This document shows, one piece after another, positions 2,259 through 47,388 of a stretch of 64,000 bases of DNA. Each line of letters begins with the position of its first letter. Within the stretch, counting starts at the first letter, position 1. Origin of the DNA: an uncultured Chloroflexia bacterium (GTDB taxonomy: Bacteria; Chloroflexota; Limnocylindria; Limnocylindrales; CSP1-4). The position numbers and the translations under genes were made by a program. The stretch lies in the NCBI GenBank assembly GCA_963768655.1, contig CAVYIM010000006.1, forward strand, positions 96,001 to 160,000, written 5' to 3'. A model generated the notes under the pieces. It was not told the origin of the DNA and made no database searches. It saw nothing but the letters and a program-made list of their open reading frames with translations.

Positions 2259-3584
2259 GTGAGCACCTACGAGCGAGGTCTACGTCCACTCAGGGCCGTC
2301 TTGAGCCTTGGCTTGGTCGCAGGTGCGCTGTGGGGCTGCAGCAATCTGGCTACACCGTCGTCATCGCCGGTGGCATCGAGCACAGCTGCGCCGACGGCAA
2401 CGGCCGGGTCGCGAGTTCCGACACCCGCGCCATCCACCTCTCCCTCGCCGACACCTGTTCCGACCCTGCCGAGCGGCAACTGGACCGGGCTCCACTGGAC
2501 CCGTGTTCAGACGACCGCTGCGGTCTGGATGACGCCTGCCATCTTGGGTGGGTCTTCGAAAGGGAACGTCACCGAGTCGGGTTGGTCTGTCTTTGGCTGG
2601 GACGACGGCTACGTCGCTTTCGACGTCGTCACCACGAAGTCGAAGAACGGTTCGAAGGTCACCGTCATCGACACGGAGCACTCGACCGACGGCATTTCAT
2701 GGTCCGCTGGAGGCTCTTTCACCCCTCCCTCGTTTACCCCTGACGTGCCGGATCAGCAGTCGCCAAGCGTCGACGGTATCGAAGAAGGACCAGTTGGTCT
2801 TCTCGTATACGACGACTACGACTGCGTCTGCGCGTGTCATTTCCCGACCATCCATCCGCTCGGGGCCTCGACGGACGGCGTCACCTGGCAGACGGTCCAG
2901 GGCGTCGTGGTGGGCGATTGGCTCGACGCCGGGTCGGCCGGCTACATCGTCACCGAGGGGGACCAAGTCGAAATCTCACAAGACGGCATCTCGTGGACCA
3001 GGACCAGACTGAGCGGCAAGGCGTTCGCAACGGTCGACTCCATCGACAGTGGAGCCTCATCTGCAGGCGGCTTCGTCATCACGAGCGAAACCTACGGGCC
3101 TCCGACCCAAGGGGCCATGTGCGTCCAGTTTCCGATTCCGATGAACCCCACGGTCTGGTTCTCGGCGGACGGGAAGAACTGGGTCCGGCAGATCCTGCCA
3201 GGCGGCATCGCCAAGGGTTACGGCAGCGCGACTGTGTGTCACATCAACGCGCATATCCTCCTCGCTCAGGAATGGGACGGTTCCGAACTGGATTGGACCT
3301 CGACCGATGGAGAGGCCTGGACAAGCGCGTCGACCGGCTTCTCCTGTGAGGGCATGCCGCTCGCGGGCCACTACCTCCTCGACTCGTTTGATCCCTACGG
3401 CAACTGGACAGTCGAAGTCCTTGGGCCCGATCTGCACTACGAAGCCCTCGCCGAGACCGGCGATGAGCCGAATTGGCACGACGTCTGGGCGGACCACGGC
3501 TGGGTCGATGCCCTGGGTCCGGCGGGACTGATCGTCTCTGATGGCCAGGGCGGTCTTTGGGTCGGTGTTCCCTTCGCGGGTTGA
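2259..3584 (+). CDS. Lipoprotein with Asp-box/BNR-like (S-x-D-G-x-x-W) repeats, beta-propeller-like
   Basis: Lipobox-like ALWGC; Pro/Ser/Thr linker; repeated STDGISW, STDGVTW, SQDGISW, SADGKNW, STDGEAW. Confidence 0.7.
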   Translation: MSTYERGLRPLRAVLSLGLVAGALWGCSNLATPSSSPVASSTAAPTATAGSRVPTPAPSTSPSPTPVPTLPSGNWTGLHWTRVQTTAAVWMTPAILGGSSKGNVTESGWSVFGWDDGYVAFDVVTTKSKNGSKVTVIDTEHSTDGISWSAGGSFTPPSFTPDVPDQQSPSVDGIEEGPVGLLVYDDYDCVCACHFPTIHPLGASTDGVTWQTVQGVVVGDWLDAGSAGYIVTEGDQVEISQDGISWTRTRLSGKAFATVDSIDSGASSAGGFVITSETYGPPTQGAMCVQFPIPMNPTVWFSADGKNWVRQILPGGIAKGYGSATVCHINAHILLAQEWDGSELDWTSTDGEAWTSASTGFSCEGMPLAGHYLLDSFDPYGNWTVEVLGPDLHYEALAETGDEPNWHDVWADHGWVDALGPAGLIVSDGQGGLWVGVPFAG

Positions 3585-4342
3585 GGCGTGCAGGGCAATC
3601 GCGACGCGATTCAGGCGAACTACATCAGCCCTCCATCACACCTTGCTGCCGCGCCTGCCGTCTGGCTGTCGGGAACGGGCAAGTCCACGTCCCCAAGGTG
3701 CCCCGAAAGGGTGCCACCTCTGACTGCCAATTCCGTACTCAACTCCGGCCCGCCTGGGCGTGCACCGAAAAGGGGTCCTTGTGAGTGGGGGCGAGAAGAC
3801 TTGCGGCCGAGACAACAAGCTAGCCGGCGGAGGTCACGAGCGGCCGTCGCGAGACGAATGCCCAGCCGCTGATGGTGGTGCGCGAGACGAGGCGGGAGCT
3901 GATGGCAGAGCCGTCGCGGCCCGACCTAGTGAGTTGAGTTCAGGCACTGCCTATCAAGGGTTTGAACAGCTCGGCTGACGCGCTACTAGCTGTTCGAGCG
4001 ATCTCTTCCCAGTCAACGACGCGACTGACCGGCGGCTCACTCCCGAGAATGCGTCCTGCCTTGAGCACCCCCACTACAGAGCCTGCGGGCGGCGGTTGGC
4101 CCTGCGACCCTCCGGACGATGGGTGCAGCGTGGCCGGACCCCTTTCGCGGCATTCCAGGCTGGTTCAGGTCATCCCAATCACCCGTTCCGCTGCCTTCCA
4201 GCCTCTGTTAATCAAGAGGCTGGAAGGCAGCGTAGCATGTCGTCCTTGACCGTCCATCGTCTGACCATGTGGACCCGATCGACCACGGGCAATCGGTCAA
4301 TCTCTCGTCATCGGGGCGCGTAGCCCCTTACGCGAGGACTAG

Positions 4343-7066: not shown

Positions 7067-7924
7067 ATGACGATGGTTGAGACGAAACACAGGGCGGCCG
7101 CTGCTGCGCCCACGCCCTCGTCAGTCGCAGCGGCGCCTGCCGCTGAGGAGAAGAAGACCCGCACGCGACTGCTTCAAGAGGATGTGCCAGGTTACTCCCT
7201 GGATCAGGCATTGCGCGTCGCCAGGGCTATCGCTGAGAACTACGCTTACAAACCCACCCGCCCAATGAACGTCGCCCGAGCGATGGGTATGTCACCGACG
7301 TCGGGGCCGTTCCGGATGATCACGGGCGCTTCCGTCGCGTACGGTCTGACGGCCGGGGCCGCCCAGGCGCCTGAGATCGGGATTGCCCCGCTAGGCATGC
7401 GGATCGTTCACCCGCTCTCCGAAGGGGACGACTTAGTCGCGACGCGGGAGGCGCTCCTGAAGCCGAAGATCGTCGGCGACTTCCTCCGCGATTACGACGG
7501 GGCCGCGATCCCCGTTGACACCATCGCCAAGAACGTACTCCATCAGAAAGGCGTTCCGACCGAACGTGTTGATGACGTGCTCGATTTGATCGTGGAGGGC
7601 GGCAAGAGCGTCGGCTTCATCACTGAGTACGGCGGAAAGCGTTGGGTCGATCTGGCGGGGCCGGCGCCGACAGCCGCTCCAAACGGCTCAACTGCAGCGG
7701 AAGCATCGGGTCCAGCCGTACCCGCGTCGGTGATGCGTGCCGTCCAGACGCCGACGGCCGCGCCTGTCGCCGTATCGGTGGGGCCAGGAATTCACATCAA
7801 CATCGAGATCCATATCGCGGCGGACGCCTCCTCGGAGACCGTTGAGGAGATCTTCAAGAACATGCGCCGATACGTTCTGGGCGGTGAAGGTAAGGCCGAC
7901 GATGGCCGCGCCGAAGCGGAGTGA
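7067..7924 (+). CDS. Hypothetical protein, DUF5343-like (N-terminal wHTH-like domain, C-terminal IHINIEIHI motif)
   Basis: YSLDQALRVARAI...GASVAYGLT N-terminus and IHINIEIHIAADASSETVEEIF C-terminus, recalled from defence-island proteins. Confidence 0.5.
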   Translation: MTMVETKHRAAAAAPTPSSVAAAPAAEEKKTRTRLLQEDVPGYSLDQALRVARAIAENYAYKPTRPMNVARAMGMSPTSGPFRMITGASVAYGLTAGAAQAPEIGIAPLGMRIVHPLSEGDDLVATREALLKPKIVGDFLRDYDGAAIPVDTIAKNVLHQKGVPTERVDDVLDLIVEGGKSVGFITEYGGKRWVDLAGPAPTAAPNGSTAAEASGPAVPASVMRAVQTPTAAPVAVSVGPGIHINIEIHIAADASSETVEEIFKNMRRYVLGGEGKADDGRAEAE

Positions 7925-8480
7925 TGGCGTAGATCCGGACCTGCTCCGCCGTCTTAGGGAGTTCCAGGTACGGGTACGCCAGCCATCACGGCGGGTCGAA
8001 GCTGTCGTGCCCGCTCGAGGACCACTCTCTGGGCGCGACGCCAATGTCCTCGCCAGATTACGGAAGCACTCCGTCTCGCTCGGGGACTCGATGGAGCAAG
8101 CCCTCACGGACTTGAACGACAACGGCCGCTTGAGTTACGTAGGACCCGCGGGTGAGATCCGCGAGGTCATGCGAGCCACGGTCCAGCTCCTCGCGCCCGA
8201 CGATGAGGTCAAGAAGCAAGCGTGGTACGTCGGCGTCGAGCAGGGCGGTAAACGCAACCCCTCGCAGGCGGAGAGAACCCGGTACGCGGTTCAACACCGG
8301 GCGGGCGACGGCGATCAGATCAAAGGAGTGGAGACGCTCATCGATGAGCTGGTCGGTCAGATCAGCCGACAAACCTACACAACCGGGAGCGCGGCTTTTC
8401 ACGTCGGGACGCAGCAGGCGAAGGTTAGGAAACTCACGGGGTGGGTCTTTGCGGTGTTGGATGAGGTTCTTCCCGAATAG
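7902..8480 (+). CDS. Putative HEPN-superfamily protein (resembles the predicted pPIWI-associating nuclease family)
   Basis: QALTDL..GRLSYVGPAGEIREVMRATVQLLAPD and C-terminal SRQTYTTGSAAFH; overlaps the upstream gene. Confidence 0.5.
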   Translation: MAAPKRSDGVDPDLLRRLREFQVRVRQPSRRVEAVVPARGPLSGRDANVLARLRKHSVSLGDSMEQALTDLNDNGRLSYVGPAGEIREVMRATVQLLAPDDEVKKQAWYVGVEQGGKRNPSQAERTRYAVQHRAGDGDQIKGVETLIDELVGQISRQTYTTGSAAFHVGTQQAKVRKLTGWVFAVLDEVLPE

Positions 8481-8484
8481 CCAG

Positions 8485-8506
8485 TACGACTAATTGGCGC
8501 TTAGAC
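8485..8506. repeat. Site A, copy 1: putative recombination site GACTAA-TTGGCGC-TTAGAC abutting ssb codon 51
   Basis: Non-ssb sequence matching 15980-16001 with one mismatch; inverted CTAA/TTAG arms around a 7-bp spacer. Confidence 0.75.
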
Positions 8507-8659
8507 CCAGACGACCACGTTGTGGTATTCCGCGCGCTCTTTGCCGTTGCCGCGGAACTCGTTGGTCGCCACGGCAAATGTGGCGACGGATGACCCGCTG
8601 GCCAGCGATCGCAGCTCCGGATCGCGGGTCAGGCGGCCGGTCAGAAGGACCTTGTTCAC
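8501..8659 (-). pseudogene. ssb: ssb 5' fragment, codons 1-51 (copy 1), with ~110 bp of upstream DNA to 8769
   Basis: [51 protein letters not shown] then V-stop; near-identical to the copies starting at 10507 and 16154. Confidence 0.9.
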
Positions 8660-8825
8660 GGTCCTGGTCTCCTCTCGCGGCGCCGCTGTGTCGCGACGCC
8701 CTCTCTTGCGGCGGTACTCGAACCGTATCCCAGCCCTCTCTACCGACGCTCATCCGCGGCTTATCCGGGGCCGACGAAGCCTTCCACAGGCCGGAGCGGT
8801 TCGATCCCCCGCGGGACGCCACTCC

Positions 8826-9380
8826 TCAGTCGGGTTTGTCCGTCTGATCGGACCATATCGGCGAAGAGTCGCCAGCCAATCCGTGATGGTCCGCAACCTG
8901 ACCACGCGGGTCGGACCATCGAGCCGGCGATGAGCCCGCAGTCTGATCCGAGGGACGGCGGCGATTCTCCAAAACGAACCGATAGAACCACCTGAGCCAG
9001 AGCGCCTCGCATGCGAAGAACGCGACCGTGAAGAGCCGTAGCAACAAACCAGGGGTGTAATACGGGTTGCTGAAAGGCAGGTTCATGACTAACGCAAACC
9101 CATTTGCCACCGCGAAGAGGATGACGTTCTCCGCCCCAGCGTATAGGTGGTTGGGGTGCGGACCACCCGAGTGCCGGTTCCTCGTCAACAGCCATCCAAG
9201 CACGGTTCCTGGATGGTCGGGGTTGTTCCTCTCGGCCCAGAAACCGACTACGTGCGGCAGATAGTGCTCGTCCAGCAGGTGGAAGGACAGGGCGAACCCG
9301 ACCGAGGACCATGGAATCGTGAAGGCCCCGAACAGGAGCATGAACCCGCCGACGGGTAGGTCGTCCGAACCTACGATCAC
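8826..9380 (-). CDS. Multi-pass membrane hypothetical protein (array cargo)
   Basis: GAGGAGGAG RBS before GTG; three hydrophobic segments. Confidence 0.6.
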   Translation of the reverse strand: MIVGSDDLPVGGFMLLFGAFTIPWSSVGFALSFHLLDEHYLPHVVGFWAERNNPDHPGTVLGWLLTRNRHSGGPHPNHLYAGAENVILFAVANGFALVMNLPFSNPYYTPGLLLRLFTVAFFACEALWLRWFYRFVLENRRRPSDQTAGSSPARWSDPRGQVADHHGLAGDSSPIWSDQTDKPD

Positions 9381-9457
9381 CGCTCCTCCTCAGTGCGAAT
9401 GGCCGGTCCATGATAGTCCCGCCGGTTCTCGCAGAACCGTCCCGGTCCCCGCTCCGC

Positions 9458-9482
9458 ACACTGGCGCGTGCCGCGGTCGTCG
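9458..9482. repeat. Site B, degenerate copy (ACACTGGCGCGTGCCGCGGTCGTCG)
   Basis: Identical to 11465-11489; reverse complement is ssb coding sequence (DDRGTR). Confidence 0.85.
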
Positions 9483-9583
9483 CCGCCTGGGTCAACGTAC
9501 CTGTGGGGTATGGGGCGGTTCCAGGCACAGGGGGGCCCTTCCGGGTACTTGAAGCCGACGCGGCCGGGTCTCAAGATCCGGAT

Positions 9584-10084
9584 GTGGCACACGATCCGGC
9601 GACTCCATCCATCCCGCCCGAAGCCCGCGGTGCGCTGGTCCTCTTCGTCGATGACGAGCCCTTGCGTCGGGCCTTCGCCATGAAAGTGCTCGGACAGGCT
9701 GGGTTCGTCACGGAGACGTTAGGAGACGGCGCCCCAGCGGTCGAGCGCCGCTTCCAAGACCCCGTGCCCGCTGTCATCGTCATGAACTGGCAGATGTTCG
9801 GAATGCACGGAGACGTGCGAATGGACGGAGACGTGGCCATCAGGCTCATACGGGAGCGAGAGGCCGCCGAAGGGCTGCCGCGCATGCCCATTCTCTTCGA
9901 AAGCGGCGACATTCTGAGTTCCAAGGTCAGGTCGGCCGACGCAGACGGATTGCTGGCTATGCCCTGCAATGTCGATCAACTGGTCGAAGCCGTCCTCCAG
10001 GTGGGCTGGCCCTCGCGGGCTGAGTCGCCCTGTGAGGCGGAGGCGTCAGCCCCGTCGGAATTCCTTGGCGACAGCTCAGCCTGA
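9584..10084 (+). CDS. Stand-alone CheY-like receiver, atypical (array cargo)
   Basis: VLFVDDEP acidic pocket and receiver fold; phospho-Asp position reads N (VIVMNWQM) and the conserved KP reads MP. Start uncertain. Confidence 0.75.
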   Translation: MAHDPATPSIPPEARGALVLFVDDEPLRRAFAMKVLGQAGFVTETLGDGAPAVERRFQDPVPAVIVMNWQMFGMHGDVRMDGDVAIRLIREREAAEGLPRMPILFESGDILSSKVRSADADGLLAMPCNVDQLVEAVLQVGWPSRAESPCEAEASAPSEFLGDSSA

Positions 10085-10219
10085 CTCCTGAGGCGAGCGC
10101 CGAGCAGCAGTCTCGGAGGCGACACCTGGCCCGCCCCGTTGGTGGCCACCCGCGCGTACGTTGCCCGACGGGTGGCACGCGTTTCTGGGTACATTCGCCA
10201 TCGCTGGCGCACGACGGGA

Positions 10220-10507
10220 TTACTTGCTGATGGGTCTAACTTGACAGTGGCGCGTGCCGCGGTCGTCGTCCCACTGGCGAGTCTGCAGGCGACCCTCGAT
10301 GGCGACCTGCTGACCCTTGCCCAGATACTGGCCGCAGACCTGCGCCAGGCGGTCCCAGACGACCACGTTGTGGTATTCCGCGCGCTCTTTGCCGTTGCCG
10401 CGGAACTCGTTGGTCGCCACAGCAAATGTGGCGACGGATGACCCGCTGGCCAGCGATCGCAGCTCCGGATCGCGGGTCAGTCGGCCGGTCAGAAGGACCT
10501 TGTTCAC
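10220..10507 (-). pseudogene. ssb: ssb 5' fragment, codons 1-87 (copy 2), truncated at site B; upstream DNA shared with copy 1 to 10617
   Basis: OB-fold N-terminus to ...[18 protein letters not shown], then foreign CQVRPISK*; the last beta strand and any C-terminal tail are missing. Confidence 0.9.
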
Positions 10508-10847
10508 GGTCCTGGTCTCCTCTCGCGGCGCCGCTGTGTCGCGACGCCCTCTCTTGCGGCGGTACTCGAACCGTATCCCCGCTCTCTCTACCGGCGCTCA
10601 TCCGCGGCTTATCCGGGCGACGGCGAAACCCGACGCGGCCATTCGACCTAGCCCCTGCTCCGCTGGTCGCCGACGATGCCGGCCCCGCGCCAGCCAGTCG
10701 AGCGGCTGTGTCGGGGGCCATAGACCCCGGTGGCAAAATGTGCGCTGTGCACGGGGGGCTTGGACACGAGGCCCACACACTGGCCGCCGGGACCGCGCCG
10801 AGCTACTGGCGAGACCGACCCGCATGGTCAATCGCGGGAGGTTCCCG

Positions 10848-11213
10848 ATGCGCTTCATCGAGATCAACGGCTTCTGCATCCGGCCCGACAAGCAGACCGA
10901 GTTCCAGCAGTGGGTCATCGCCAACGAGGCGCGGCTCAAGCGTGCGTACCCGCAGGGGTCCGAGTTCGGTGGCATCTTCGGAGTGGTCTACAGCTCTGAC
11001 AAGAGCGGCGGCGGATGCTACTGGCTAGAAACTCACGACAGCTACGGGGCTATTGACCTGAGCGCCGCTGTCTCAAAGGATCCGACCAGCGAGATGGCCA
11101 ACGTGATGAAGGAGTTCGTGGCATTCCTCGATCCGGATCGGAACGCGGGCTGGAGCCACCACCTGCTCAAGTCCGTCGTTGACGCCACCGTGTTCGACAT
11201 GCCCGCGAGCTGA
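10848..11213 (+). CDS. Hypothetical protein, possibly ferredoxin-like dimeric alpha/beta barrel (array cargo)
   Basis: GGGAGG RBS; MRFIEINGFCIRPDKQTEFQQW pattern is like ABM/NIPSNAP-type proteins. Confidence 0.65.
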   Translation: MRFIEINGFCIRPDKQTEFQQWVIANEARLKRAYPQGSEFGGIFGVVYSSDKSGGGCYWLETHDSYGAIDLSAAVSKDPTSEMANVMKEFVAFLDPDRNAGWSHHLLKSVVDATVFDMPAS

Positions 11214-11457
11214 AGTCGTGCGTGTCTGAATGGTCGATTCTCTGAGGCGTGGAGGTCGGCCCTGAGTCGCGCACGCAGTGGTCGCGCCGACCAGTCCAGG
11301 CAATCCCACAGTCAGGCCGGGTGAGGATAAGCCGCGCCCGCTAAGCGGCCCTCGCTTCGCTCCTCCCGGCCCCGCTCCGCTGGTCGGCTGCGCCGTGGCA
11401 GCAAGACCGGCCACGTCGGGGGCCAGCTGGGCACGTGGGTCACTTCTAGCGGTGGTC

Positions 11458-11492
11458 AAACCTAACACTGGCGCGTGCCGCGGTCGTCGCCG
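11458..11492. repeat. Site B copy (AAACCTAACACTGGCGCGTGCCGCGGTCGTCGCCG)
   Basis: Direct repeat with 9458, 10244, 12649, 13248 and 15414. Confidence 0.9.
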
Positions 11493-11545
11493 ACGTTCCT
11501 GTCCGGCCGGTTCGAGCGGATACTTTGGAGGTTGAGCATCTCGGC

Positions 11546-12397
11546 CTAACCTCCCAGCAAACGCGGCTGCATCGGCACGGGGAACGGCCTGCTGAGCAGG
11601 TAGCCCTGCCCGAAGTCGACCTCTCGATCCTGCAGAGCCAGCAGGTCCTTGCGGTTCTCGATCCCCTCGGCGATGGTCTGGGCGCCGATTCGGCGGCTGA
11701 ACGAGACGAACGCCTCGACCAGGGCCTTCTTCGCCTCGGCGTCCTTGTTGCCGATGCCCTGGACGATCTCCTTGTCGATCTTGATGATCGAGGGCTCCAG
11801 CGCGGCGATGACGGTGAAGCTCGCGTAGCCGGCACCGGCGTTGTCGACGGCGAAACCGAAGCCCAGGTCACGAAGGGCGCGGACCTGCTTCTTCATGTGC
11901 GGGACATCGTGGATCGCCTGACGCTCGATGCACTCGATCACTATCTGATCCGGCGAGAGGCCGACTCCACGGACGCGCTCTGCCAGGGCGCTGGCCTCGA
12001 ACTGGGGCGCCAGGAGGCTCGCTGGCAGGACGTTGATGCCGAACCGCATTCGCTGTCCAGCCGAAGCCGGTTCCACGACCTGGGCAATCCGAGTCAGCGT
12101 GGCTTCGACGATGAAGGAGTCGAGATCCACCTCACGCTTGGCCGCGACGGCCGCCTCCACGACATCGGTGATGGACTGGGATCCCATGCCGTGGCTCAGG
12201 CGGAACAGGCACTCCCATTCATGCGCCTTCAGGGTCGCGAGGTCCACGATCGGCTGGAACTCCACGCGGTGCTCGTGCAAGGCGAAGAACTGCGAGAGCA
12301 AGTCGGAACCGGCCTCTTCTTGGGTCTCGCCTTGGCCGATGCGATCGCCCCCCGATGTCTGCTCCACCGCCCTGTGTGATGCCCTGAAGAAGCGCAC
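11546..12397 (-). CDS. Stand-alone EAL-domain protein (c-di-GMP phosphodiesterase family; array cargo)
   Basis: FQPIV, ECLFR, IECIE, AVDNAGAG, IKIDK, IAEGIE, GQGYLLSRP; GAGGAGG RBS. Confidence 0.9.
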   Translation of the reverse strand: MRFFRASHRAVEQTSGGDRIGQGETQEEAGSDLLSQFFALHEHRVEFQPIVDLATLKAHEWECLFRLSHGMGSQSITDVVEAAVAAKREVDLDSFIVEATLTRIAQVVEPASAGQRMRFGINVLPASLLAPQFEASALAERVRGVGLSPDQIVIECIERQAIHDVPHMKKQVRALRDLGFGFAVDNAGAGYASFTVIAALEPSIIKIDKEIVQGIGNKDAEAKKALVEAFVSFSRRIGAQTIAEGIENRKDLLALQDREVDFGQGYLLSRPFPVPMQPRLLGG

Positions 12398-12648
12398 GGT
12401 GCCTCCTCACCTACGACCCCCGCGGCGTGCACCCTCACCGGGAAGACGAGACCGGCCAATCTCAAGGGCCCGGAGGTCTCAGTTCGTGGCCGCCTCGTGC
12501 CGGTTCAGGCGTCTAGGGTACAAGATCGTCCGTGATGAGCCGACCCCGCCGGCACTGGAAGCGCCCAGTCTCGCCCCGGTCCGCTCCGCTGGTTGGCTAA
12601 GTCGTGACAGCTAGACCGGCTGCGTCGGGGGACTCCAAGCCATGGGTG

Positions 12649-12682
12649 AAACCTAACACTGGCGCGTGCCGTGGTCGTCGTC
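12649..12682. repeat. Site B copy (AAACCTAACACTGGCGCGTGCCGTGGTCGTCGTC)
   Basis: One mismatch to the 11458 copy over the first 32 bp. Confidence 0.9.
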
Positions 12683-12837
12683 TCCATGGGCTCCAGCTCG
12701 GATGGAGGCGGCAAGGAGTAACGCAGTAGCCGCTGGGGTTCTGCCTCGCGTACGGCACGGGTGGGCGGGTGCCGCGCAAGGGCAGCAGACTATCCTCTAG
12801 AGTGGATCGGGTCAGGCGAAGCAACGGAGGAACAAGT

Positions 12838-13104
12838 GTGAGCGGCGACGCGGTGATCGCAGTCGTGGCCGGGGCCTTCTTCTTCGTCCTCCAGTCTCCC
12901 ATGAGGTGGCTCCGCAACGATCCGCACGCCTTTCGGAACTCGGCAGCGGCAGCTGCTGCATTTGCCACCGCGTGGTTCGTCGCGACCGACCTTCTGCCAG
13001 GCAGCAACGCGCGGATCGTCCTGATCCTGATCCTGATCATGGCCGCGGTGCTGGCCGCGACCAGTCGCTACTGGTTGCCCCGCGTTCGGCGACTACGGAG
13101 CTGA
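12838..13104 (+). CDS. Small 3-TM membrane protein (array cargo)
   Basis: GGAGGA RBS before GTG; three hydrophobic helices. Confidence 0.6.
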   Translation: MSGDAVIAVVAGAFFFVLQSPMRWLRNDPHAFRNSAAAAAAFATAWFVATDLLPGSNARIVLILILIMAAVLAATSRYWLPRVRRLRS

Positions 13105-13247
13105 GGCGGTCGTTCTCTCGCTGCCAGTCTGTCAGCCCTCACTCGCCCGCTGCCTCAGCACCCCCACCGAGACGAAACCCGTGGCAATCCCTCAGTCTGG
13201 CCACGTGGCAAGCCGAGCGGCTGCGCGGGGCCTGACGGCGTGCGTCT

Positions 13248-13280
13248 AGCCAAACACTGGCGCGTGCCGCACTCGTCGCC
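13248..13280. repeat. Site B copy, diverged (AGCCAAACACTGGCGCGTGCCGCACTCGTCGCC)
   Basis: Shares AACACTGGCGCGTGCCGC and TCGTCG with the other copies. Confidence 0.8.
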
Positions 13281-13527
13281 CGCGATCCGGCGTGGTCCAG
13301 CAACTGCGTCGAGGCCTCGCGTTCAGCCGTTTGCAGGATGCGCGCGGGCACGGCGAGTGTCAGGTGGATGGCCGCATCGTTCGAGCGATGGAGCGTCGAG
13401 CCCGTTGAGGCGGCACCATTCGGCACTTTGAGGCTCGGCTTGGGTCCGGCACAGTACGGCCAGGATCCGACCTGGCGCGGCGACGTGCCGCTCGGACGGG
13501 GATGAAGCTTGCCAGAGGAGGCGTCCG

Positions 13528-15414
13528 GTGGCAGGTCAGGACATCGAGCCTACGTCGGCCTTCGAGACTCGTTGGACTGTCGTTCGCGTCGAGAGGGGGT
13601 TGCCCGGTGTCCGTGCGGGCGACACTCTATCGTTCGAGCGCTCGGACTCTGAGATCACCGTGCTGAAGGCCGGTGCAGGGGTAGTCACCCGGCTATCACC
13701 GCCTGCCTCATTCCAGGTGGCGAGGTCCGAGACTGACCCGGACCTCGGTGAATGGCAGGTCGTTCATGACGGCCAGCGACTTGCAGTTCTGAAGCCGCGC
13801 CCACGTCTCTCTGCACAGGTGCGAGGCCAGGCCCCCACCGGAGTGAGGAAGGATGCTGGCGCGCAGTGGGTTCGTGTGTGCCTGAACTGCCACTCGCTCA
13901 ACTACGCCTGGTCTACGTGGTGTTGGGGCTGCGGAGCTCCGTCCTCGTCGTTCGGACCCGCGTTTCAGGCTCGTGGGCACCCGACCCCACCCCCACCGGG
14001 AGCCTCCAAGACCGTCGCCCCGGGGTGGGATCTCCCGGCGAGTACGAAGCCGAACGCGCTGCGGGGGGCTGCGCGCCCCAACGAGCTGAGCACGGCCGCC
14101 GCTGCGCCTCTCTATGACCCCGAGCCCAGCCTGTTCGGTGTTGCTCCCCCCATTGTCACGCCTGCCAGCAGCGCAACGACCTGGGCCAAGTACCTCCGCG
14201 TGATCGTGGGCTTCGTGGTGCTGGCTGTTCTCGGGTTGTACCGGGTTGGGAGTAGCGCCCCTGAGCCCAGCTCCTTCCCCATAACCAGCCCCTTCCCCAT
14301 GAGCGCCATGTGGTCGTTTGGTGCCGACCATACCGCGACCCTGCTGTCCGACGGCCGCGTGCTCGTCGCCGGGGGATTGGACCAAGACGACAACACCCTC
14401 TACTCCGCCGATATCTACGACCCCGTGAGCGGCACATTCAGCCCGACCGGCTCGATGACCACGGCTCGGGACTACCACACTGCGACACTGCTGTCCGACG
14501 GTCGCGTGCTCATCACCGGGGGTTTGGACCAAGACGGCATCGCGCTCTCCACCGCCGATATCTACGACCCGACGAGCGGCACTTTCAGCCCGACCGGCTC
14601 CATGTCCACCGCGCGAACGTTCGACACCGCGACCCTGCTCCGCGATGGCCGCGTGCTCGTGGCCGGAGGTGAAGACCAGGACGGCAACCGTCTAGCCTCT
14701 GCCGAGATCTACGACCCCGTGAGCGGCACTTTCAGCCCGACCGGCTCGATGGCCACGGCTCTGGACGACCACACCGCGACGCTGCTCCGCGATGGCCGCG
14801 TGCTCATCGCCGGGGGTTTGGACCAAGACGGCGACGCGCTCTCCTCTGCCGAGATCTACGACCCGACGAGCGGCACTTTCAGCCTGACCGGCTCGATGAT
14901 CACGGCTCGGGACTGCCACACCGCGACCATGCTGTCCGACGGTCGCGTGCTCATTGCCGGAGGTTTCGACCAAGACCGCAACGCGCTCTCCTCTGCCGAG
15001 ATCTACGACCCGACGAGCGGCACTTTCAGCCCGACCGGCTCGATGGCCACGGCTCTGGACGACCACACCGCGACGCTGCTCCGCGATGGCCGCGTGCTCA
15101 TCGCCGGGGGTTTGGACCAAGACGGCGACGCGCTCTCCTCTGCCGAGATCTACGACCCGACGAGCGGCTTCTTCAGCCTGACCGGCTCGATGATCACGGC
15201 TCGGGACTGCCACGCCGCGACGCTGCTGTCCCACAGCATCGTGCTCATTACCGGGGGTTTGGACCAGGGCGGCAGCCCGCTCTCCTCTGCCGAGACCTAC
15301 GACCCGATTCCCGGCATGTTCAGCGCGACCGGCTCGATGACCTTCACTTACCACAGACACACTGCCACGGCGCTCTCCACGACTGCGTCAGGGGGCCCGT
15401 TGGGGCTGGGATGA
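13528..15414 (+). CDS. Membrane-anchored Kelch-repeat protein with N-terminal RanBP2-type zinc finger (array cargo)
   Basis: CLNC-HSL-N-YAWSTW-CWGC; TM helix; seven 49-aa HTATLLxDGRVLxxGG repeats; GAGGAGG RBS. Confidence 0.85.
   Translation: MAGQDIEPTSAFETRWTVVRVERGLPGVRAGDTLSFERSDSEITVLKAGAGVVTRLSPPASFQVARSETDPDLGEWQVVHDGQRLAVLKPRPRLSAQVRGQAPTGVRKDAGAQWVRVCLNCHSLNYAWSTWCWGCGAPSSSFGPAFQARGHPTPPPPGASKTVAPGWDLPASTKPNALRGAARPNELSTAAAAPLYDPEPSLFGVAPPIVTPASSATTWAKYLRVIVGFVVLAVLGLYRVGSSAPEPSSFPITSPFPMSAMWSFGADHTATLLSDGRVLVAGGLDQDDNTLYSADIYDPVSGTFSPTGSMTTARDYHTATLLSDGRVLITGGLDQDGIALSTADIYDPTSGTFSPTGSMSTARTFDTATLLRDGRVLVAGGEDQDGNRLASAEIYDPVSGTFSPTGSMATALDDHTATLLRDGRVLIAGGLDQDGDALSSAEIYDPTSGTFSLTGSMITARDCHTATMLSDGRVLIAGGFDQDRNALSSAEIYDPTSGTFSPTGSMATALDDHTATLLRDGRVLIAGGLDQDGDALSSAEIYDPTSGFFSLTGSMITARDCHAATLLSHSIVLITGGLDQGGSPLSSAETYDPIPGMFSATGSMTFTYHRHTATALSTTASGGPLGLG
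14329..15357 (+). repeat. Seven tandem 147-bp Kelch-coding repeats
   Basis: Fixed 147-bp period; units 4 and 6 are nearly identical in DNA. Confidence 0.9.
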
Positions 15415-15550
15415 ACCTAACACTGGCGCGTACCGCGGTCGTCGTCCCACTGGCGAGTCTGCAGGCGACCCTCGATGGCGACCTGCTGACCCTTGCCCAG
15501 ATACTGGCCGCAGACCTGCGCCAGGCGGTCCCAGGTGCCACGTTGTGGTA
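15414..15550 (-). pseudogene. ssb: ssb internal fragment (codons ~45-87) bounded by a site A duplication and site B
   Basis: [41 protein letters not shown] followed by GTTAGGT. Confidence 0.9.
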
Positions 15551-15668
15551 CCCGCCCGGAGCGCTGGTGACAGAAAGACATATGCTCCGGCCGAGGCGCC
15601 AGCGCTAGACTCTGGTCAGAGAGCGGCCCCTCCCAAGGCTCGCTCCGCGACGAAAGGGGTTCGATCCG

Positions 15669-15863
15669 ATGGCAGGTAAGTTCGTGCTGTCCAAGGCCAA
15701 GAACGGCAAGTTCCACTTCTCGCTCAAGGCTGGGAACGGCGATATCATCGCCACGTCCCAGATGTACGACAGCAAGGCCGGTGCCCTCAACGGCATCGAG
15801 TCTGTCAAGAAGAACGCGTCGGGGGCTACGGTCGACGATCAGAGCGACAAGCCTGCCGAGTAA
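15669..15863 (+). CDS. YegP/DUF1508 family protein (array cargo)
   Basis: [48 protein letters not shown]. Confidence 0.9.
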
Positions 15864-15979
15864 GCCCCGAGGCCCCGACCGCAGCCAGTCACCATCCCGT
15901 AGTCCTCTCTCGCGTCCTGCAGGCCCTCGCTGTGTTCGGCGGGGGCCTCTCTTATCCCACCCACCCGAGTGTGGCGAAA

Positions 15980-16001
15980 TACGACTAAGTGGCGCTTAGA
16001 C
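15980..16001. repeat. Site A, copy 2: GACTAA-GTGGCGC-TTAGAC abutting ssb codon 51
   Basis: Matches 8485-8506 with one mismatch. Confidence 0.75.
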
Positions 16002-16154
16002 CCAGACGACCACGTTGTGGTATTCCGCGCGCTCTTTGCCGTTGCCGCGGAACTCGTTGGTCGCCACAGCAAATGTGGCGACGGATGACCCGCTGGCCAG
16101 CGATCGCAGCTCCGGATCGCGGGTCAGTCGGCCGGTCAGAAGGACCTTGTTCAC
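15996..16154 (-). pseudogene. ssb: ssb 5' fragment, codons 1-51; probably the original chromosomal 5' end
   Basis: Same truncation as 8501-8659; its upstream DNA diverges from the other two copies after 16209; it borders non-array DNA. Confidence 0.9.
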
Positions 16155-16360
16155 GGTCCTGGTCTCCTCTCGCGGCGCCGCTGTGTCGCGACGCCCTCTC
16201 TTGCGGCGGGTGAGAGAACGGCATCGAATGGGCATTCATCCCGGCTTACCGGCGGCTCATCCGAATGCGCTCTGGCCGCCTTTGACGCGATATGCTGGAC
16301 CCGGAACGGAGTTGCCCGGGAGCGATGACCGGACCGGGCCGAGGGAAGGAGAGGGTGTCG

Positions 16361-17987
16361 ATGTCGACTTCGCACCGGCTGGCGACGGGTCGTCGACCTG
16401 CCGTGCTGGGCCGCATCGGACGAGTTGGGGCCGCCGTCTTGCTGGGAACGGGTTTCGTGGCCTCGGCCTGGGCCGGGCCGCTGGCCGGGCCCCTCGCCGC
16501 GGCGCCGGTCGGGGGCCGGGTCGTGGCCTGGGGCTACGACCACTCCGACCAGACCGACGTCCCGGATTCCGCCCAGGCGGGCGTGATCATGGTCGCGGGG
16601 GGCTGCAACCACAGCCTCGCCCTCAAGTCGAACGGAAGCGTGATCGCCTGGGGTGACGACACGTACCACCAGACCGATGTCCCTGCGGCAGCCCAATCGG
16701 GAGTCATCGCCATCTCGGCCGGGTGCAACCACAGCCTGGCCCTGCGATCGAACGGCCAGATCGTGGCCTGGGGCGACAACTAGTACGGCCAGTTGAACGT
16801 GCCTTCTCTGCCCGCCGGTCGGAGGTGGATCGCGATCGGCGCCGGCGAGCGACATAGCACGGGCGTGGCCAACGGCGGTGTAGCCAACCAGGTCTATGCC
16901 TGGGGCGACGACACGTATCTCCAGACGGAAGCCCCGATCTCCGTATACAAAGGGCAGTCGATCACGCTCCCGAACAGCCATGACGTCGACGCGGGCGAGT
17001 ACGACAGCATCGCCCTGAACAAGAACGGAACCGTGGCGGTCTGGGGTGGCCCGCCCGCAAGCCTCGGAGCCGTCCCGGCAGGGCTCTCACACGTGATCGC
17101 CATCGCCATCGGCCGGGAACACGCTCTGGTGCTCGAGTCGAACGGCACGGTCGTGACCTGGGGCGAGAACGACTACTCCCAGCTGGACGTTCCGTCCGGC
17201 CTTTTGGGGGTCAAGGCGATCGCGGCGGGTGGCTATCACAGCCTGGCGCTGAAGTCGAACGGCCAGATCGTGGCCTGGGGTCGCGACGACTTCGGCCAGA
17301 CGGACGTGCCGGCTCTTCCACCCGGGTCGCGCTACTCGGCGATCGCCGCCGGGGCGCTCCACAGCCTGGCCATCGTCCCGCCGAAATCCGCCCGGCGCTC
17401 CGACGGGCGTGGCGGCCTCGGCCTGGGATGGCTCCGCCGCCGTCTCGTGGGCGGCTCCCGGGAGCGACGGGGGCGGCCCAATTTCGGGCTACACCGTCAC
17501 ATCGGCGCCGGGCGGCAAGACCTGCGCGACCACCGGCGCGTTGAGCTGCACTCTCGGCGGGCTCACCGACGGGACGTCGTACACGTTCACGGTCAGGGCC
17601 AGGAACGGGGCCGGGTTCGGAGCTACCTCGGCGAAATCGAACGCCGTGACGCCTATCGCTGGAACCACGCCGGAACCGAGCGCGAAGCCGACGCCGGCCG
17701 TCACGGCCGCACCGCCCGTCCCCACGCCCGTCCCTACCAGCAGCCCCTCGACCGGCCATCCCACCGCGAGCCCGACCGCCTCGCTCGCGGGCGCGGTCGC
17801 GGGCTCGAGATCGAGCGGAGGCGGCGGGTTGCTGTTGGTTCTAATGGCGGTGATCGCCGCGCTGGCCATCTGCCTGGCGGGCCTGGTCGGATACCAGATC
17901 GCCAGCATGAGGCGGGCGCCGGCGTTCGTCGGGGAACCGCCGGAGACTGACGAGACGGCGACGGACAGCGGTCGGCAGCCTTCGTGA
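16361..17987 (+). pseudogene. RCC1/BLIP-II repeat + fibronectin type III surface protein, interrupted
   Basis: GxxHSLALKSNG.V.AWG repeats, fn3 and C-terminal TM; in-frame TAG at 16781-16783 and a frameshift near 17385. Confidence 0.75.
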
Positions 17988-43804: not shown

Positions 43805-46072
43805 GTGGCGCATCGGATCGCGGTTGGCGTTTCTGGAACCGGCAGCAACCTGCGTGCCCTGCACGCCCTGGCGTCGCGCTGCGCGCTCGACGCGGAGATA
43901 GCCCTGGTCTTCGCCGATCGCCCCTGCGCCGCCCTGGATTGGGCCGTGGAGCAGGGGCTCGAGACGCTGCTCGTGCCGGCAGCGCCACGGGGCGACGCCG
44001 CCGCCCGGGCCGCCGAAGACGCCATCCTCGCCGAGTCGGTCGGGGCCGTCTCGCCCGAGCTGGTGGTGCTGGCGGGCTACATGCGGCTCGCGGGTCCGGC
44101 GATGCTGGCCGCGTTTGCGGGCCGGATGATCAATCTCCACCCGGCCCTGTTGCCGGCGTTCCCCGGTGCGCACGGCGTGCGTGACGCGCTCACCGCCGGG
44201 GTCAAGGTGACGGGCGTGACCGTCCATTTCGTCGACGACTCGCTCGACGGCGGCCCGATCATCGTCCAGGAGGCCGTCCCGGTCCTGCCCAACGACACCG
44301 AGGAAACGCTGTTCGAGCGCATCCACGCGGTCGAGCACCGGCTGCTCCCGCGCGCGGTCGGCCTGTTCCTGGCCGGCGCGCTCTCGATCGAGCCGGAGGG
44401 TCGAACCGTCTGCATCGACGCCTCGAAGGCTGCCGCGAAGATGCCGGTCCCGCGCCGGGCCCTGCTCTCGGTCTCCGACAAGACCGGCCTGCCCGAATTC
44501 GGGGCCGGCCTGGTTCGCCTGGGCTTCGAGCTGGTCTCCACCGGCGGCACGGCTCGGGCGCTTCGCGCCGCGGGCCTGCCCGTCACCGACGTGGCGGCGG
44601 TCACCGGCTTCCCGGAGATGCTCGACGGGCGGGTCAAGACGCTCCACCCGCGGGTCCACGCGGGGATCCTGGCCGATCGCCGCGTGACCGCCCACCGCGA
44701 GCAGCTGGCCGCCGCCGCAATCGACCCGTTCGAGCTCGTCGTCGTCAACCTCTATCCGTTCGCCGCAGCGGCCGAACGGCCCGGCATCTCCTTCGAAGAC
44801 CTGGTCGAGGAGATCGACATCGGTGGGCCCTCGATGGTCCGCGCGGCCGCGAAGAACCACGCCTCCGTGGCGATCGTGACCTCGCCGGCTCGCTACGAGT
44901 CGGTTCTCGCCGCGATCGAGCGCGACGGTCGAGTGGGGGAGGGGCTCCGCTCCGCGCTGGCAGTCGAGGCGTTCCGCCATACCGGCGCCTACGACGCCCG
45001 CATCGCCGCGGAGCTGCCCGGCCGGATGGCCGAGGAGGGTTGCGGCCTGCCGGACGAGCCGGGCCTCCCCGGCGCCACCGACCCGTACCCGCCGGTCCTG
45101 GTCATCGGCCTGGAGAAGGTCGAGACGCTGCGGTACGGCGAGAACCCGCACCAGCAGGCCGCCCGGTACCGCCGCCCCGGCACGAAGAAGTGGGCCGGGC
45201 CGTTCGCCCTGGGCGGCTCGATCCTGCAGGGCAAGGCCCTGAGCTACAACAACGTGCTCGACGCCTCGGGCGCGTACAACATCGCCCGCCAGCTGCGCGG
45301 TCCGGCGGTCGTGATCGTCAAGCACACCAACCCGTGCGGCGCCGCGGAGCGCGCCACCCTCGAGGAGGCGTGGCTGGACGCTCTGGCCGGCGACCCGGTC
45401 TCGGCCTACGGCGGCGTCGTGGCCCTGACCCGCGAAGTCGACGCCGCCACGGCCGCAGGCCTGGCGTCGATCTTCCTGGAAGTGATCGTGGCGCCGTCCT
45501 ACTCGGCGGCCGCCCTGCAGATCCTCTCGAAGAAGGCGAACCTGCGGCTGTTGGAGGATTCGGTCCTCGGATCGGACGAGCTCGCGCCCCCGCCCGATCC
45601 GACGGGCTCTCTGCGCGTCGCCGGCGGCGCGGTGCTGGTCACCGCCCCGGACGTCCTGCCCGACGACCCGAAGACGTGGAAGATGGTCACGTCGCGGGCG
45701 CCGTCAGCCGGGGAGCTGCGCGACCTGGATCTGGCCTGGCGGCTGTGCCGCAGCGTCGTCTCGAACGCGATCGTGCTGGTCAAGGATGGCATGGAGATCG
45801 GCCTCGGGTCGGGCCAGACGAGCCGGGTCGACGCCGCCCGCCAGGCCGTCGCCAAGGCCGTCGCCTTCCACGGCGCCGACGCGCTGAAGGGCGCCGCCTG
45901 CGGCTCGGACGCGTTCTACCCGTTCCCCGACGCGTTGGAGGTCTGTCTCGAGGCGGGCGTCACCGCCTACGCCCAGCCCGGCGGCTCCATGCGGGACGCC
46001 GAAGTCATCGCCGTCGCCGAGGCCGCCGGCGCCGCGATGATGGTCACGGGAGTGCGCCACTTCCGGCACTAG
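43805..46072 (+). CDS. purH: PurN-PurH fusion (GAR formyltransferase + IMP cyclohydrolase/AICAR transformylase)
   Basis: SGTGSNL and NLHPALLP (PurN), then in frame RALLSVSDK, GRVKTLHP, LRYGENPHQ, SDAFYPF, GVRHFRH (PurH). Confidence 0.95.
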   Translation: MAHRIAVGVSGTGSNLRALHALASRCALDAEIALVFADRPCAALDWAVEQGLETLLVPAAPRGDAAARAAEDAILAESVGAVSPELVVLAGYMRLAGPAMLAAFAGRMINLHPALLPAFPGAHGVRDALTAGVKVTGVTVHFVDDSLDGGPIIVQEAVPVLPNDTEETLFERIHAVEHRLLPRAVGLFLAGALSIEPEGRTVCIDASKAAAKMPVPRRALLSVSDKTGLPEFGAGLVRLGFELVSTGGTARALRAAGLPVTDVAAVTGFPEMLDGRVKTLHPRVHAGILADRRVTAHREQLAAAAIDPFELVVVNLYPFAAAAERPGISFEDLVEEIDIGGPSMVRAAAKNHASVAIVTSPARYESVLAAIERDGRVGEGLRSALAVEAFRHTGAYDARIAAELPGRMAEEGCGLPDEPGLPGATDPYPPVLVIGLEKVETLRYGENPHQQAARYRRPGTKKWAGPFALGGSILQGKALSYNNVLDASGAYNIARQLRGPAVVIVKHTNPCGAAERATLEEAWLDALAGDPVSAYGGVVALTREVDAATAAGLASIFLEVIVAPSYSAAALQILSKKANLRLLEDSVLGSDELAPPPDPTGSLRVAGGAVLVTAPDVLPDDPKTWKMVTSRAPSAGELRDLDLAWRLCRSVVSNAIVLVKDGMEIGLGSGQTSRVDAARQAVAKAVAFHGADALKGAACGSDAFYPFPDALEVCLEAGVTAYAQPGGSMRDAEVIAVAEAAGAAMMVTGVRHFRH

Positions 46073-46104
46073 GAGGGGCGGCGAGTGCGAGGTCGTCGGT
46101 CGTG

Positions 46105-47388
46105 ATGATGTGGAAGGCCGGGCGAGGGCTCAGCTCGGCCGCGACCAATTCGGCGAGGCTGTGTTCGCGGACCCGACGGGGAACCGCCGGCGTCGTCGCC
46201 CTGGCCACGACGTTCCTGGCGGTGGCCGTGGCGGGTTGCGGCTCGCCGGCGGCGAGCGTCTCCCCGTACGTCAGCCCTGCCCCTGCCCTCACGCCTGGAG
46301 CGAGCGCCAGCCCGACCACGGTGGCCACATCCGGTGCGTCCGCCTCGCCGCCCCAGGAGGGTGGCACCTTCAGGGACGGCGGGAGCCCGGCGGCCAATCT
46401 CGATTTCAGTCTCGCAACTCTTCTTCTCGACGGACGGGTCCTGTTCGCCGGCGGGCTCGAAGGTACTTCGGAGTTGTACGACCCGACGACCGGGACATTC
46501 CACCCAAGCGGATCGGGCCTTGGACGGTCCAATGACACGGCCACGCTTCTGCGCGATGGTCGGGTGCTCATCGTCGGGGGCGTCGACGCCGCGAGCCCGT
46601 ACGGAGACTACACGGCGTCAGCGGAGCTGTACGACCCCACAACCGGGACGTTCAGCCCGACCGGCAACATGGCAACCGCCCGGGAGAACCAGACCGCGAC
46701 GCTGCTCGGGGATGGTCGCGTACTCATCGTCGGGGGCGATCAGGAAGCTGGCGCCGACGACAACGCTCTGGCCTCGGCCGAGCTGTTCGACCCGGCCACC
46801 GGCAAGTTCAGCCCGACGGGGTCACTCAGGACCGCCCAGACCGGTCAGACTGCCACTCTCCTCAATGACGGCAGGGTCCTCATCGCCGGCGGCCTGGATA
46901 ACTCGAGCAATGTCGCTCAATCGGAGCTGTACGACCCGGCCACCGGCAAGTTCGGCCTGACCGGCTCGATGATGACCCCGCGTAGCGGCCAGACCGCCAC
47001 GCTCCTGTCAGACGGCCGCGTTCTCATGGCGGGAGGTTCAGACAACGCCAATCAGTCCCTCTCGTCGGCAGAGATCTACGACCCCGCGACGGGCAGGTTC
47101 ACCCGTACCGGCTCGATGACTGAGACCCGTGATAACTTCCTCGCCACGCGACTCCTGGATGGTCGAGTTCTCCTGGCGGGTTGCGGTAACGCTTGCACCG
47201 ACGATTCGGCCGAGCTGTACGACCCTGGCACCGGAACCTTCACGGCTACCGGCTCCCTGCCGCCTGGGCTTGCGGCACAGACCGCCACGCTGCTGCCCGA
47301 CGGACGAGTTCTGCTCCTACTGGAGGACCACTCCCCCGAAACGAGCGGCAAACCACCTGTGGCCACGGCCGAGCTGTACCAACCCTGA
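46105..47388 (+). CDS. Kelch-repeat lipoprotein
   Basis: VAGC lipobox; repeats TATLLxDGRVLxxGG...AELYDP. Start uncertain. Confidence 0.85.
   Translation: MMWKAGRGLSSAATNSARLCSRTRRGTAGVVALATTFLAVAVAGCGSPAASVSPYVSPAPALTPGASASPTTVATSGASASPPQEGGTFRDGGSPAANLDFSLATLLLDGRVLFAGGLEGTSELYDPTTGTFHPSGSGLGRSNDTATLLRDGRVLIVGGVDAASPYGDYTASAELYDPTTGTFSPTGNMATARENQTATLLGDGRVLIVGGDQEAGADDNALASAELFDPATGKFSPTGSLRTAQTGQTATLLNDGRVLIAGGLDNSSNVAQSELYDPATGKFGLTGSMMTPRSGQTATLLSDGRVLMAGGSDNANQSLSSAEIYDPATGRFTRTGSMTETRDNFLATRLLDGRVLLAGCGNACTDDSAELYDPGTGTFTATGSLPPGLAAQTATLLPDGRVLLLLEDHSPETSGKPPVATAELYQP

Follow-up and report, generated by a model that had tools for sequence, protein, structure and literature searches.

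What the conserved sequence at the ends of a row of small gene cassettes does, and how it came to adjoin the same short core in units whose cargo is unrelated, is the question raised by a locus of an uncultured Chloroflexota bacterium. The DNA analysed (hereafter, the window) is a stretch of 64,000 nucleotides (nt), i.e. positions 96,001-160,000 of the forward strand of the metagenome-assembled contig CAVYIM010000006.1 (GCA_963768655.1), in which a row of small single-gene cassettes lies inside a copy of ssb. The units between successive cores measure 0.6-2.2 kb and mostly carry one gene, which differs from unit to unit without any relationship. The conserved stretch is, in our judgement and with somewhat better than even confidence, that part of a site-specific recombination site which the cassette itself carries, the recombinase being encoded elsewhere.

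The core of this site, termed site B, is the 25-nt sequence ACACTGGCGCGTGCCGCGGTCGTCG, of which the window contains six copies at ≤3 mismatches, every one of them on the + strand (cores B1 to B6, at 9458..9482, 10244..10268, 11465..11489, 12656..12680, 13254..13278 and 15420..15444, respectively); by chance none is expected, as no match within the same limit was obtained in any of 100 shuffles. The core is the antisense of ssb codons 80-87, encoding DDDRGTR(Q/H), and at two of the six positions the gene itself follows. Thus, B2, an ACAGTGG variant, runs on at its right into ssb codons 87 to 1 (minus strand, 10244-10507), the minus-strand open reading frame (ORF) at 10220-10507 scoring 108 bits against the Pfam SSB family, and B6 runs on, likewise on the minus strand, into codons 87 to 50 (15420-15536), a 466-bp insert separating this part from codons 1-51 of that copy at 16002..16154 (minus strand). 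Together with about 110 bp upstream, the ssb 5′ part is present in three copies in the window (8507-8769, 10244-10617 and 16002-16264; 98% and 84% identical), in which repeat and ssb comparison places the coding portions at 8507-8659, 10244-10507 and 16002-16154. The ssb 3′ part was not found anywhere in the window (best tblastn E = 0.56). Intact SSB proteins of 157-165 amino acids (aa) that share the first 87 residues are common in Limnocylindrales. Four clusters (20, 4, 2 and 34 members) consist of SSB forms of 88 aa that stop exactly at ...DDDRGTRHC. Since these are cut at the exact point of the core, interruption at this place recurs in nature; other interrupted SSB forms read through into junk sequence.

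Further copies of the core were sought by a genome scan with ACTGGCGCGTRCCGYGGTCGTCG, a pattern that required ACTGG where native ssb reads AGTGG, so that native ssb sites were not retrievable by it. Seven loci were returned, namely three Sorangium chromosomes and four contigs of metagenome-assembled genomes (MAGs) designated Candidatus Limnocylindrales or 'Chloroflexi bacterium' (L002, L003, L004 and L006). The Sorangium matches were rejected, being coding sequence for an unrelated GHTDDRGTRQ stretch (by eye OmpA-like) devoid of cassette features. A core profile applied to the four MAG contigs yielded nine more cores, for a total of 15 in five contigs (next best E = 1.1), and within each contig all cores are co-oriented. 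In contigs of three other Limnocylindrales/Chloroflexi genomes the end is again found beside this core, its position and orientation unchanged and the cargo unrelated; the cargo of the related loci includes a DUF4082-like protein, an Imm5-like protein, three riboswitch-led ORFs and a PNPOx-like protein.

The arrangement in L004 is the simplest, consisting, in the orientation of the window, of the ssb 3′ part, a core (CCAGTGG), a 1.44-kb cassette, the cassette end, a second core (ACACTGG) and the ssb 5′ part. The 3′ part is open for 80 codons up to its stop (DDERGTRHWKTEVVAT...EDEQVLVLA*), and the locus reads as a single cassette cleanly splitting an otherwise intact ssb, with cores and flanks that resemble an attL/attR pair. 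The same contig holds, about 1.5 kb further out than the ssb 3′ part, an extra, decayed ssb fragment (3357-3419; codons ~63-83 and a partial core) and an orphan cassette end (3640-3690; the 17-nt block described below plus GGTGGCTAAC) that adjoins no core; both look like the remains of older junctions. At two other cores, one each in L002 (9776-9815) and L006 (1020-1059), a different left flank, ...CTTGGGATGACC, is shared (z = 11.5), which differs both from the usual cassette end and from the ssb 3′ part.

According to an earlier note on this DNA, the sequence left of the cores is homologous between units with unrelated cargo, and the best pair, formed by the ends before B3 (11465) and B4 (12656), bears this out. 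The segments 11372-11422 and 12581-12631 are collinear, as the note had it, with 43 of 51 bases identical, and a repeat search widened the match to 11365-11422 against 12574-12631 (58 nt, 81%). The element GATRAGCCG indeed precedes both motifs, as GATAAGCCG at 11326 and GATGAGCCG at 12534, collinearly and 46 and 47 nt ahead, so that the ends can be aligned in full (11326-11464 against 12534-12655), giving 90 identities in 116 ungapped columns (78%) and 29 gap columns. The significance of such matches was assessed by local alignment of the 140 nt left of 13 cores (six of the window, seven of the related loci), each pair being compared with 200 dinucleotide shuffles. The B3-B4 pair exceeds all 200 (z = 18.9). 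Across genomes, B3 and B4 pair with the L006c end (z = 6.7 and 5.9), B6 with L004a (5.9) and B5 with L003 (5.1). Overall, z is greater than 3 for 11 of the 78 pairs and has a median of 0.14; the ends are, therefore, a mosaic family rather than a single uniform repeat.

Weaker versions of the end lie left of the four further window cores. At B1, the 22 nt to the left (9436-9457) match the start of the motif, CCCGGYCCCCGCTCCGC, and its direct fusion to the core at 9441-9457, proposed in the note, is backed by the B1-B3 comparison (z = 4.7). The diverged versions that it listed fared unequally: those at 13204-13230 (70% in the repeat search) and 15383-15397 are sustained by the cross-genome scores of B5 and B6, respectively, and that at 10128-10146 is weak, since three mismatches to the 17-mer are a level also seen at unrelated places and chance-like when taken alone. 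The last belongs to the end of the response-regulator cassette (10128..10243, + strand; weak match at 10131-10147, 3 mismatches), in which the block adjoining the core is the variant GGGTCTAACTTGAC. The end of the small-ORF unit (13183..13253, + strand) is shortened; its first part, 13183-13207, is 84% identical to 11299-11323, and its 17-nt block (13215-13231) has 3 mismatches. The end of the Kelch unit (15381..15419, + strand) is made of a sequence like the 17-nt block (15381-15397) followed by the abutting block (15405-15419). Finally, a full copy of the motif unlisted in the note is found at 10655-10720, with no adjoining core.

A core-anchored alignment of 11 ends, combined with an alignment of cassette heads and tails, resolves the end into three blocks. 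The one that abuts the core reads GGTGGG..RAAC and then CTAAC (or the variants CTTGAC and CAAAC), and it meets the core at one fixed base in nine cassettes with unrelated cargo in four contigs. The second is the 17-nt block, GAGCGGCYGCGTCGGGG, located 24-43 nt left of the core. At ≤1 mismatch it has five matches in the ~170 kb examined, each oriented like the core and no more than 50 nt away from a core or a core-like block; two are to the left (gaps of 24 and 25 nt) and three to the right (28, 31 and 32 nt). Accordingly, the homology described by the note to the left of the cores is real and is not limited to that side: blocks related to the motif are found also to the right of some cores, the 17-nt block lying 31-32 nt right of cores in L002 and L004. 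The third and leftmost block, CCGCTCCGCTGGTYGSC, is core-like; it occurs in the B3, B4 and L006c ends and in the extra copy at 10655, and aligns to the core together with the sequence flanking it on the right (10648-10684 against 11468-11504, 70% over 37 nt). Its spacing from the 17-nt block mirrors that of the true core from the 17-nt block, and core, spacer and 17-nt block stay in register in the head alignment of L002, L004, the extra window copy (X) and the ends of B3, B4 and L006c. On these alignments, the leftmost block looks like a decayed copy of the core; in its long version, the end has the appearance of an old core and right arm, after which come the abutting block and the live core. 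In the window, the unit 10244-11464 ends in this long form at 11326..11464 (+ strand; core-like block 11372-11388, 17-nt block 11405-11421, abutting block 11450-11464), as does the EAL unit at 12534..12655 (+ strand; 12581-12597, 12614-12630 and 12641-12655, respectively), and copy X, of the head type, spans 10645..10744 (+ strand; core-like block 10655-10671, 17-nt block 10700-10716), finishing with GGTGGCAAAAT.

Two further features bear on what the end belongs to. Its orientation is constant even in the EAL unit, in which the cargo gene is reversed (minus strand), and the end is, therefore, tied to the site and not to the 3′ end of a gene. Furthermore, the first four bases of the core track the left flank, being ACAC where a cassette end precedes and CCAG where the ssb 3′ part does; past GTCGTCGYC, the bases track the right flank. 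As each edge of the core follows its own flank, strand exchange would have to lie inside the shared TGGCGCGTGCCGCGGTCGTCGYC.

Taken together, the fixed junction, the gene-independent orientation, the restriction to the site and the occurrence of the 17-nt block on both arms lead to the reading of the end as the half-site of the mobile partner. Cassettes would have been inserted successively into a 21-23 bp target, TGGCGCGTGCCGCGGTCGTCGYC, formed by the antisense of the ssb codons for DDDRGTR, each bringing along the same core and, distal to the ssb 5′ part, the abutting block (GGTGGG..RAAC-CTAAC) and the 17-nt block. In some cassettes the 17-nt block is directly repeated across the core, the layout to be expected of arm-type or accessory-protein sites, and a recombinase with its gene at another place in the genome would bind to both core and arms and carry out strand exchange within the shared 21-23 bp, thereby inserting cassettes or excising them as circles. 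The end would, thus, have a cis-acting role, as arm or as accessory sites. The recombinase could be either of the tyrosine type or a CcrB-like serine enzyme; direct repeats of ~20 bp arise from tyrosine integrases and, as in the ssrA islands of Dehalococcoides (PMC3146451), from CcrB-like serine recombinases alike. Of the interpretation given in the earlier note, the part that stands is that the units are related elements and not random target duplications, for the same end-core junction is found in four contigs with unrelated cargo and the motif is confined to the arrays; matches to the motif do sit at ssb junctions, as the arrangement in L004 illustrates. The integrase that it expected beside a full-length element was found neither in the window nor in any of the four loci.

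This last result opens the list of points that weigh against a recombination site. In 128 ORFs of the window no integrase, resolvase or related recombinase was found, and in 91 ORFs of the four loci none besides two unrelated transposases of the IS110 family. No matching autonomous element was recovered in the 64 kb of the window plus ~46 kb of related loci, the scan pattern being one that could not return native ssb sites. Nor did the sequences compared include a circular junction or empty-site DNA, with the same blindness of the pattern to the native ssb form. The insertions disrupt ssb, and the window is without an ssb 3′ part. All related sequences compared, like the window, are MAG contigs. 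The conservation of the end is patchy, as indicated by the small share of significant pairs and by the profile built on the tails of nine ends, which found no further significant copy, and the same blocks also occur where they look promoter-like. The unannotated ORFs left of the array gave, in NCBIfam, PHROGs and PDB sequence searches, HTH/AAA-like traces only. Enzymes of the IS110 family are bridge-RNA recombinases. The two DEDD transposase genes of this family (L002 3417-4496, minus strand; L003 4132-4932, plus strand) were rejected as the cassette recombinase: the cores are 4-5 kb away, the two genes share 25% identity, and neither the window nor any cassette holds a gene of this kind. Being distant, mutually unrelated and without a window counterpart, they are regarded as incidental.

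The blocks that look promoter-like are the starting point of a different account, in which the end is a decayed cassette head (an old core plus a promoter) left behind after loss of the cargo, the ends would be alike by descent, and any function would be that of a rightward promoter (extended -10, TGGGATAAT-like) rather than of a recombination arm. The similarity of the leftmost block to core and right flank, over those 37 nt, and the register of the head alignment are what this account would lead one to expect. Moreover, head-type copies terminate in GGTGGGATAAT, GGTGGGACAAT or GGTGGCAAAAT (in copy X, a -10-like hexamer occupies 10734-10739 within GGTGGCAAAAT), and by their sequence look like extended -10 promoters; in all three head-type riboswitch cassettes (window, L002 and L006) a hexamer CAAAAT, GATAAT or GACAAT ends 4-8 nt ahead of the aptamer, and in L003 a ribosome-binding site and start codon come after these blocks (GGTGGGTAAT). 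The junction between abutting block and core, however, is fixed to the base in nine cassettes, which is not expected from random loss of cargo; the ends adjoining a core carry GAAC or AAAC where heads have ATAAT; the end of the EAL unit points away from its gene; and a sigma-70 consensus scan of 8400-16400 gave no promoter-like site and one terminator-like site, below the shuffle mean. A promoter is, besides, compatible with a recombination site, and the ends may be partly decayed heads, or one sequence may have both roles. The account is possible, and we remain doubtful of it. A variant in which the head region is a decayed ssb fragment was rejected, alignments of the right flanks of heads with ssb not being significant.

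The single-gene units, mostly co-oriented, with a conserved site on the 3′ side and no integrase nearby, are also what would be seen if the array were a cluster of integron cassettes lacking an integrase (CALIN) and the end an attC site recombined as a folded single strand. An attC is an imperfect hairpin of the bottom strand with paired R″-L″ and L′-R′ boxes, RYYYAAC at one end and GTTRRRY at the other, and ACCTAAC does fit the inverse core RYYYAAC, a match to which abuts the core at 6 of the 15 sites. A GTTRRRY partner within 160 nt was found at only two of the 15, at inconsistent positions, and no local inverted repeat is common to the units. Single-strand DNA folding was run in two rounds, the second widened to an upstream inverted copy of the 17-nt block; over the 18 folds (ends with or without core, on either strand), z ranged from -0.55 to +1.90 relative to 200 shuffles per fold, and none folded better than the shuffles. 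Identity over 21-23 bp to a protein-coding target is not a trait of attC or attI, and IntI was not found, no Phage_integrase match having been obtained in the 128 window and 91 locus ORFs, with the proviso that array heads may lie outside the sequence covered. With no fold signal, no R″/R′ pair and no IntI, the end is not an integron attC, and an integron explanation of the array is very improbable. We give even less credence to the idea that the motif is a generic dispersed (REP-like) repeat, a chance resemblance or an artefact of metagenome-bin assembly. The sequence is GC-rich, matches to the short blocks with three mismatches occur elsewhere at chance level, and the contigs are MAG assemblies. 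Against this stand the B3-B4 score and the distribution of the motif: 16-mer matches at ≤2 mismatches are in the array in three of three cases (0.48 expected), the other 53 kb of the window are free of the motif, and the profile of the nine ends gave, for the window and the four loci alike, no additional copy with a significant score (best non-training E = 0.45, 0.84 and 8.1). A REP-like repeat would be palindromic and have many copies scattered between genes; with copies at junctions only and no fold signal, and with the motif confined to the array, it is not a REP-like repeat as far as the sequence covered shows; the same architecture in four separately assembled contigs speaks against an artefact. 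The plasmid and phage collections searched gave no match to end plus core.

With the recombination site as the preferred reading, the contents of the array can be considered. In the window, the cassettes carry a receiver-domain (response-regulator) protein (9410-10084, + strand), an EAL phosphodiesterase (11546-12397, minus strand), a small ORF (12769-13104) and a Kelch-repeat protein (13528-15414), whose ORF enters the cassette end and has its stop (15412-15414) inside the block abutting the core. The unit 10244-11464 is made of the ssb 5′ part and upstream region, then a riboswitch, and then a 121-aa ORF (10848-11213), the riboswitch being a c-di-GMP-II-GAG aptamer (10745..10827, + strand; 63.8 bits, gathering score 40) that precedes the ORF. 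As this cassette lies beside those for the EAL and receiver-domain proteins, the cargo leans to cyclic di-GMP (c-di-GMP) signalling. A degenerate core at 10773 was rejected, its position falling within the riboswitch. Aptamers of the same c-di-GMP-II-GAG class head four different small cassette genes in all (61-70 bits, same gathering score), those outside the window being at L002 9591-9672, L003 11261-11345 and L006 2106-2190. The Kelch ORF contains seven tandem repeats of 147 nt, and a second, related Kelch gene lies outside the array at 45040-47388. Beside the array, an RCC1-repeat gene (16292-17950) is split by an in-frame TAG (16781-16783) into ORFs 16292-16783 and 16793-17950; it may be a pseudogene, or the stop a sequencing error.

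A second type of junction is found in the same ssb gene, at codons ~40-48, where an end reading ACGACTAAKTGGCGCTTAGAC abuts CCAGACGACCACGTTGTGGTA twice, with unrelated cargo (junctions at 8486-8527, 15526-15548 and 15981-16022 of the window). The cargo here is a pPIWI-nuclease-like ORF (7737-8480) and a 64-aa DUF1508 gene (15669-15863), the DUF1508 unit being 466 bp long and flanked by an imperfect ~24-nt ssb repeat. The end of this second type is absent from all four related loci.

A wider proposal, which we advance tentatively and would not yet count as probable, is that Limnocylindrales possess an undescribed integron-like system of gene capture. Cassettes would be stockpiled in ssb and moved by a remote recombinase that acts on a double-stranded core of ~22 bp with an arm of 40-130 bp in place of a folded attC, some of them with their own promoter block and c-di-GMP-II riboswitch, and a second, unrelated cassette family would use a site 120 bp away in the same gene. 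Were this so, gene-cassette stockpiling would not be limited to integrons; a lineage of soils and freshwaters about which little is known would possess a cassette platform of its own, with recombination sites of a different design; and cassettes would import their own regulation (c-di-GMP riboswitches, EAL phosphodiesterase, receiver domain). The profile of end plus core provides a handle to find arrays in metagenomes and to trace the recombinase by co-occurrence. A further question is why ssb, which GInt islands also favour (PMC5385486), draws unrelated mobile elements. In the literature, we found no description of cassettes or of integration inside ssb, nor of such arrays or of integrons in Limnocylindria; the searches did bring up the account of the GInts.

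Comparison with known systems helps to place the array. With integron cassettes it shares small, mostly single-gene and co-oriented units, a site that lies almost wholly on one side of the crossover, and a recombinase that need not be within the cassette; it differs from them in having no hairpin-forming palindrome or R″/R′ pair, in a core that has >20 bp in common with a coding target, base for base, and in the promoter-like block and riboswitch that some of its cassettes carry. The attP of lambda-type phages has arm-type sites, and Xer sites such as cer and psi have accessory sequences on one side. The layout described here is similar, i.e. a core flanked by short repeated sites tens of bases away, with a site of at least 100 bp on the mobile partner only, whereas the spacing and number of the blocks are not known to match any described attP, and the role as an arm is a prediction.

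GInts are the sole type of ssb-targeting element found in the literature. As reported in PMC5385486, several unrelated GInts insert at the end and, once, at the beginning of ssb, are flanked by imperfect direct repeats and excise as circles; they have a ginABCD operon (three integrases and a small protein), a short 3′ end rich in AT and repeats of 10-17 nt, carry 2.5-70 kb of cargo, and leave the ssb product unchanged. Compared with that description, the elements in the window and related loci have the same target, but no integrase domain in the scanned ORFs, GC-rich ends, repeats of 21-25 nt and an ssb cut after codon 87. The defining features of integrons and those of GInts are both absent.

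Closer in operation are the cis-mobilisable elements (CIMEs) that accrete in tandem, as in the ICESt1 family, and the ssrA islands of Dehalococcoides, also a member of the Chloroflexota. As described in PMC3146451, both consist of tandem units bounded by a direct repeat of ~20 bp derived from a single-copy essential gene, many of the units having no integration module of their own and being presumed to move in cis or in trans; the ssrA islands are on the 10-kb scale, occupy the 3′ end of ssrA with the gene left intact, and in many cases have a CcrB-like serine recombinase module beside attL. The units here are likewise bounded by target-derived direct repeats, the 15 cores sharing 21-23 bp with ssb and L004 preserving both halves of the gene; unlike the ssrA islands, they are of 0.6-2.2 kb, sit in the middle of ssb with the frame broken, and in no case include a recombinase. 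By analogy, then, the array would appear to work like the tandem accretion of integrase-less elements known from CIMEs and ssrA islands, while in scale and layout it resembles integron cassettes.

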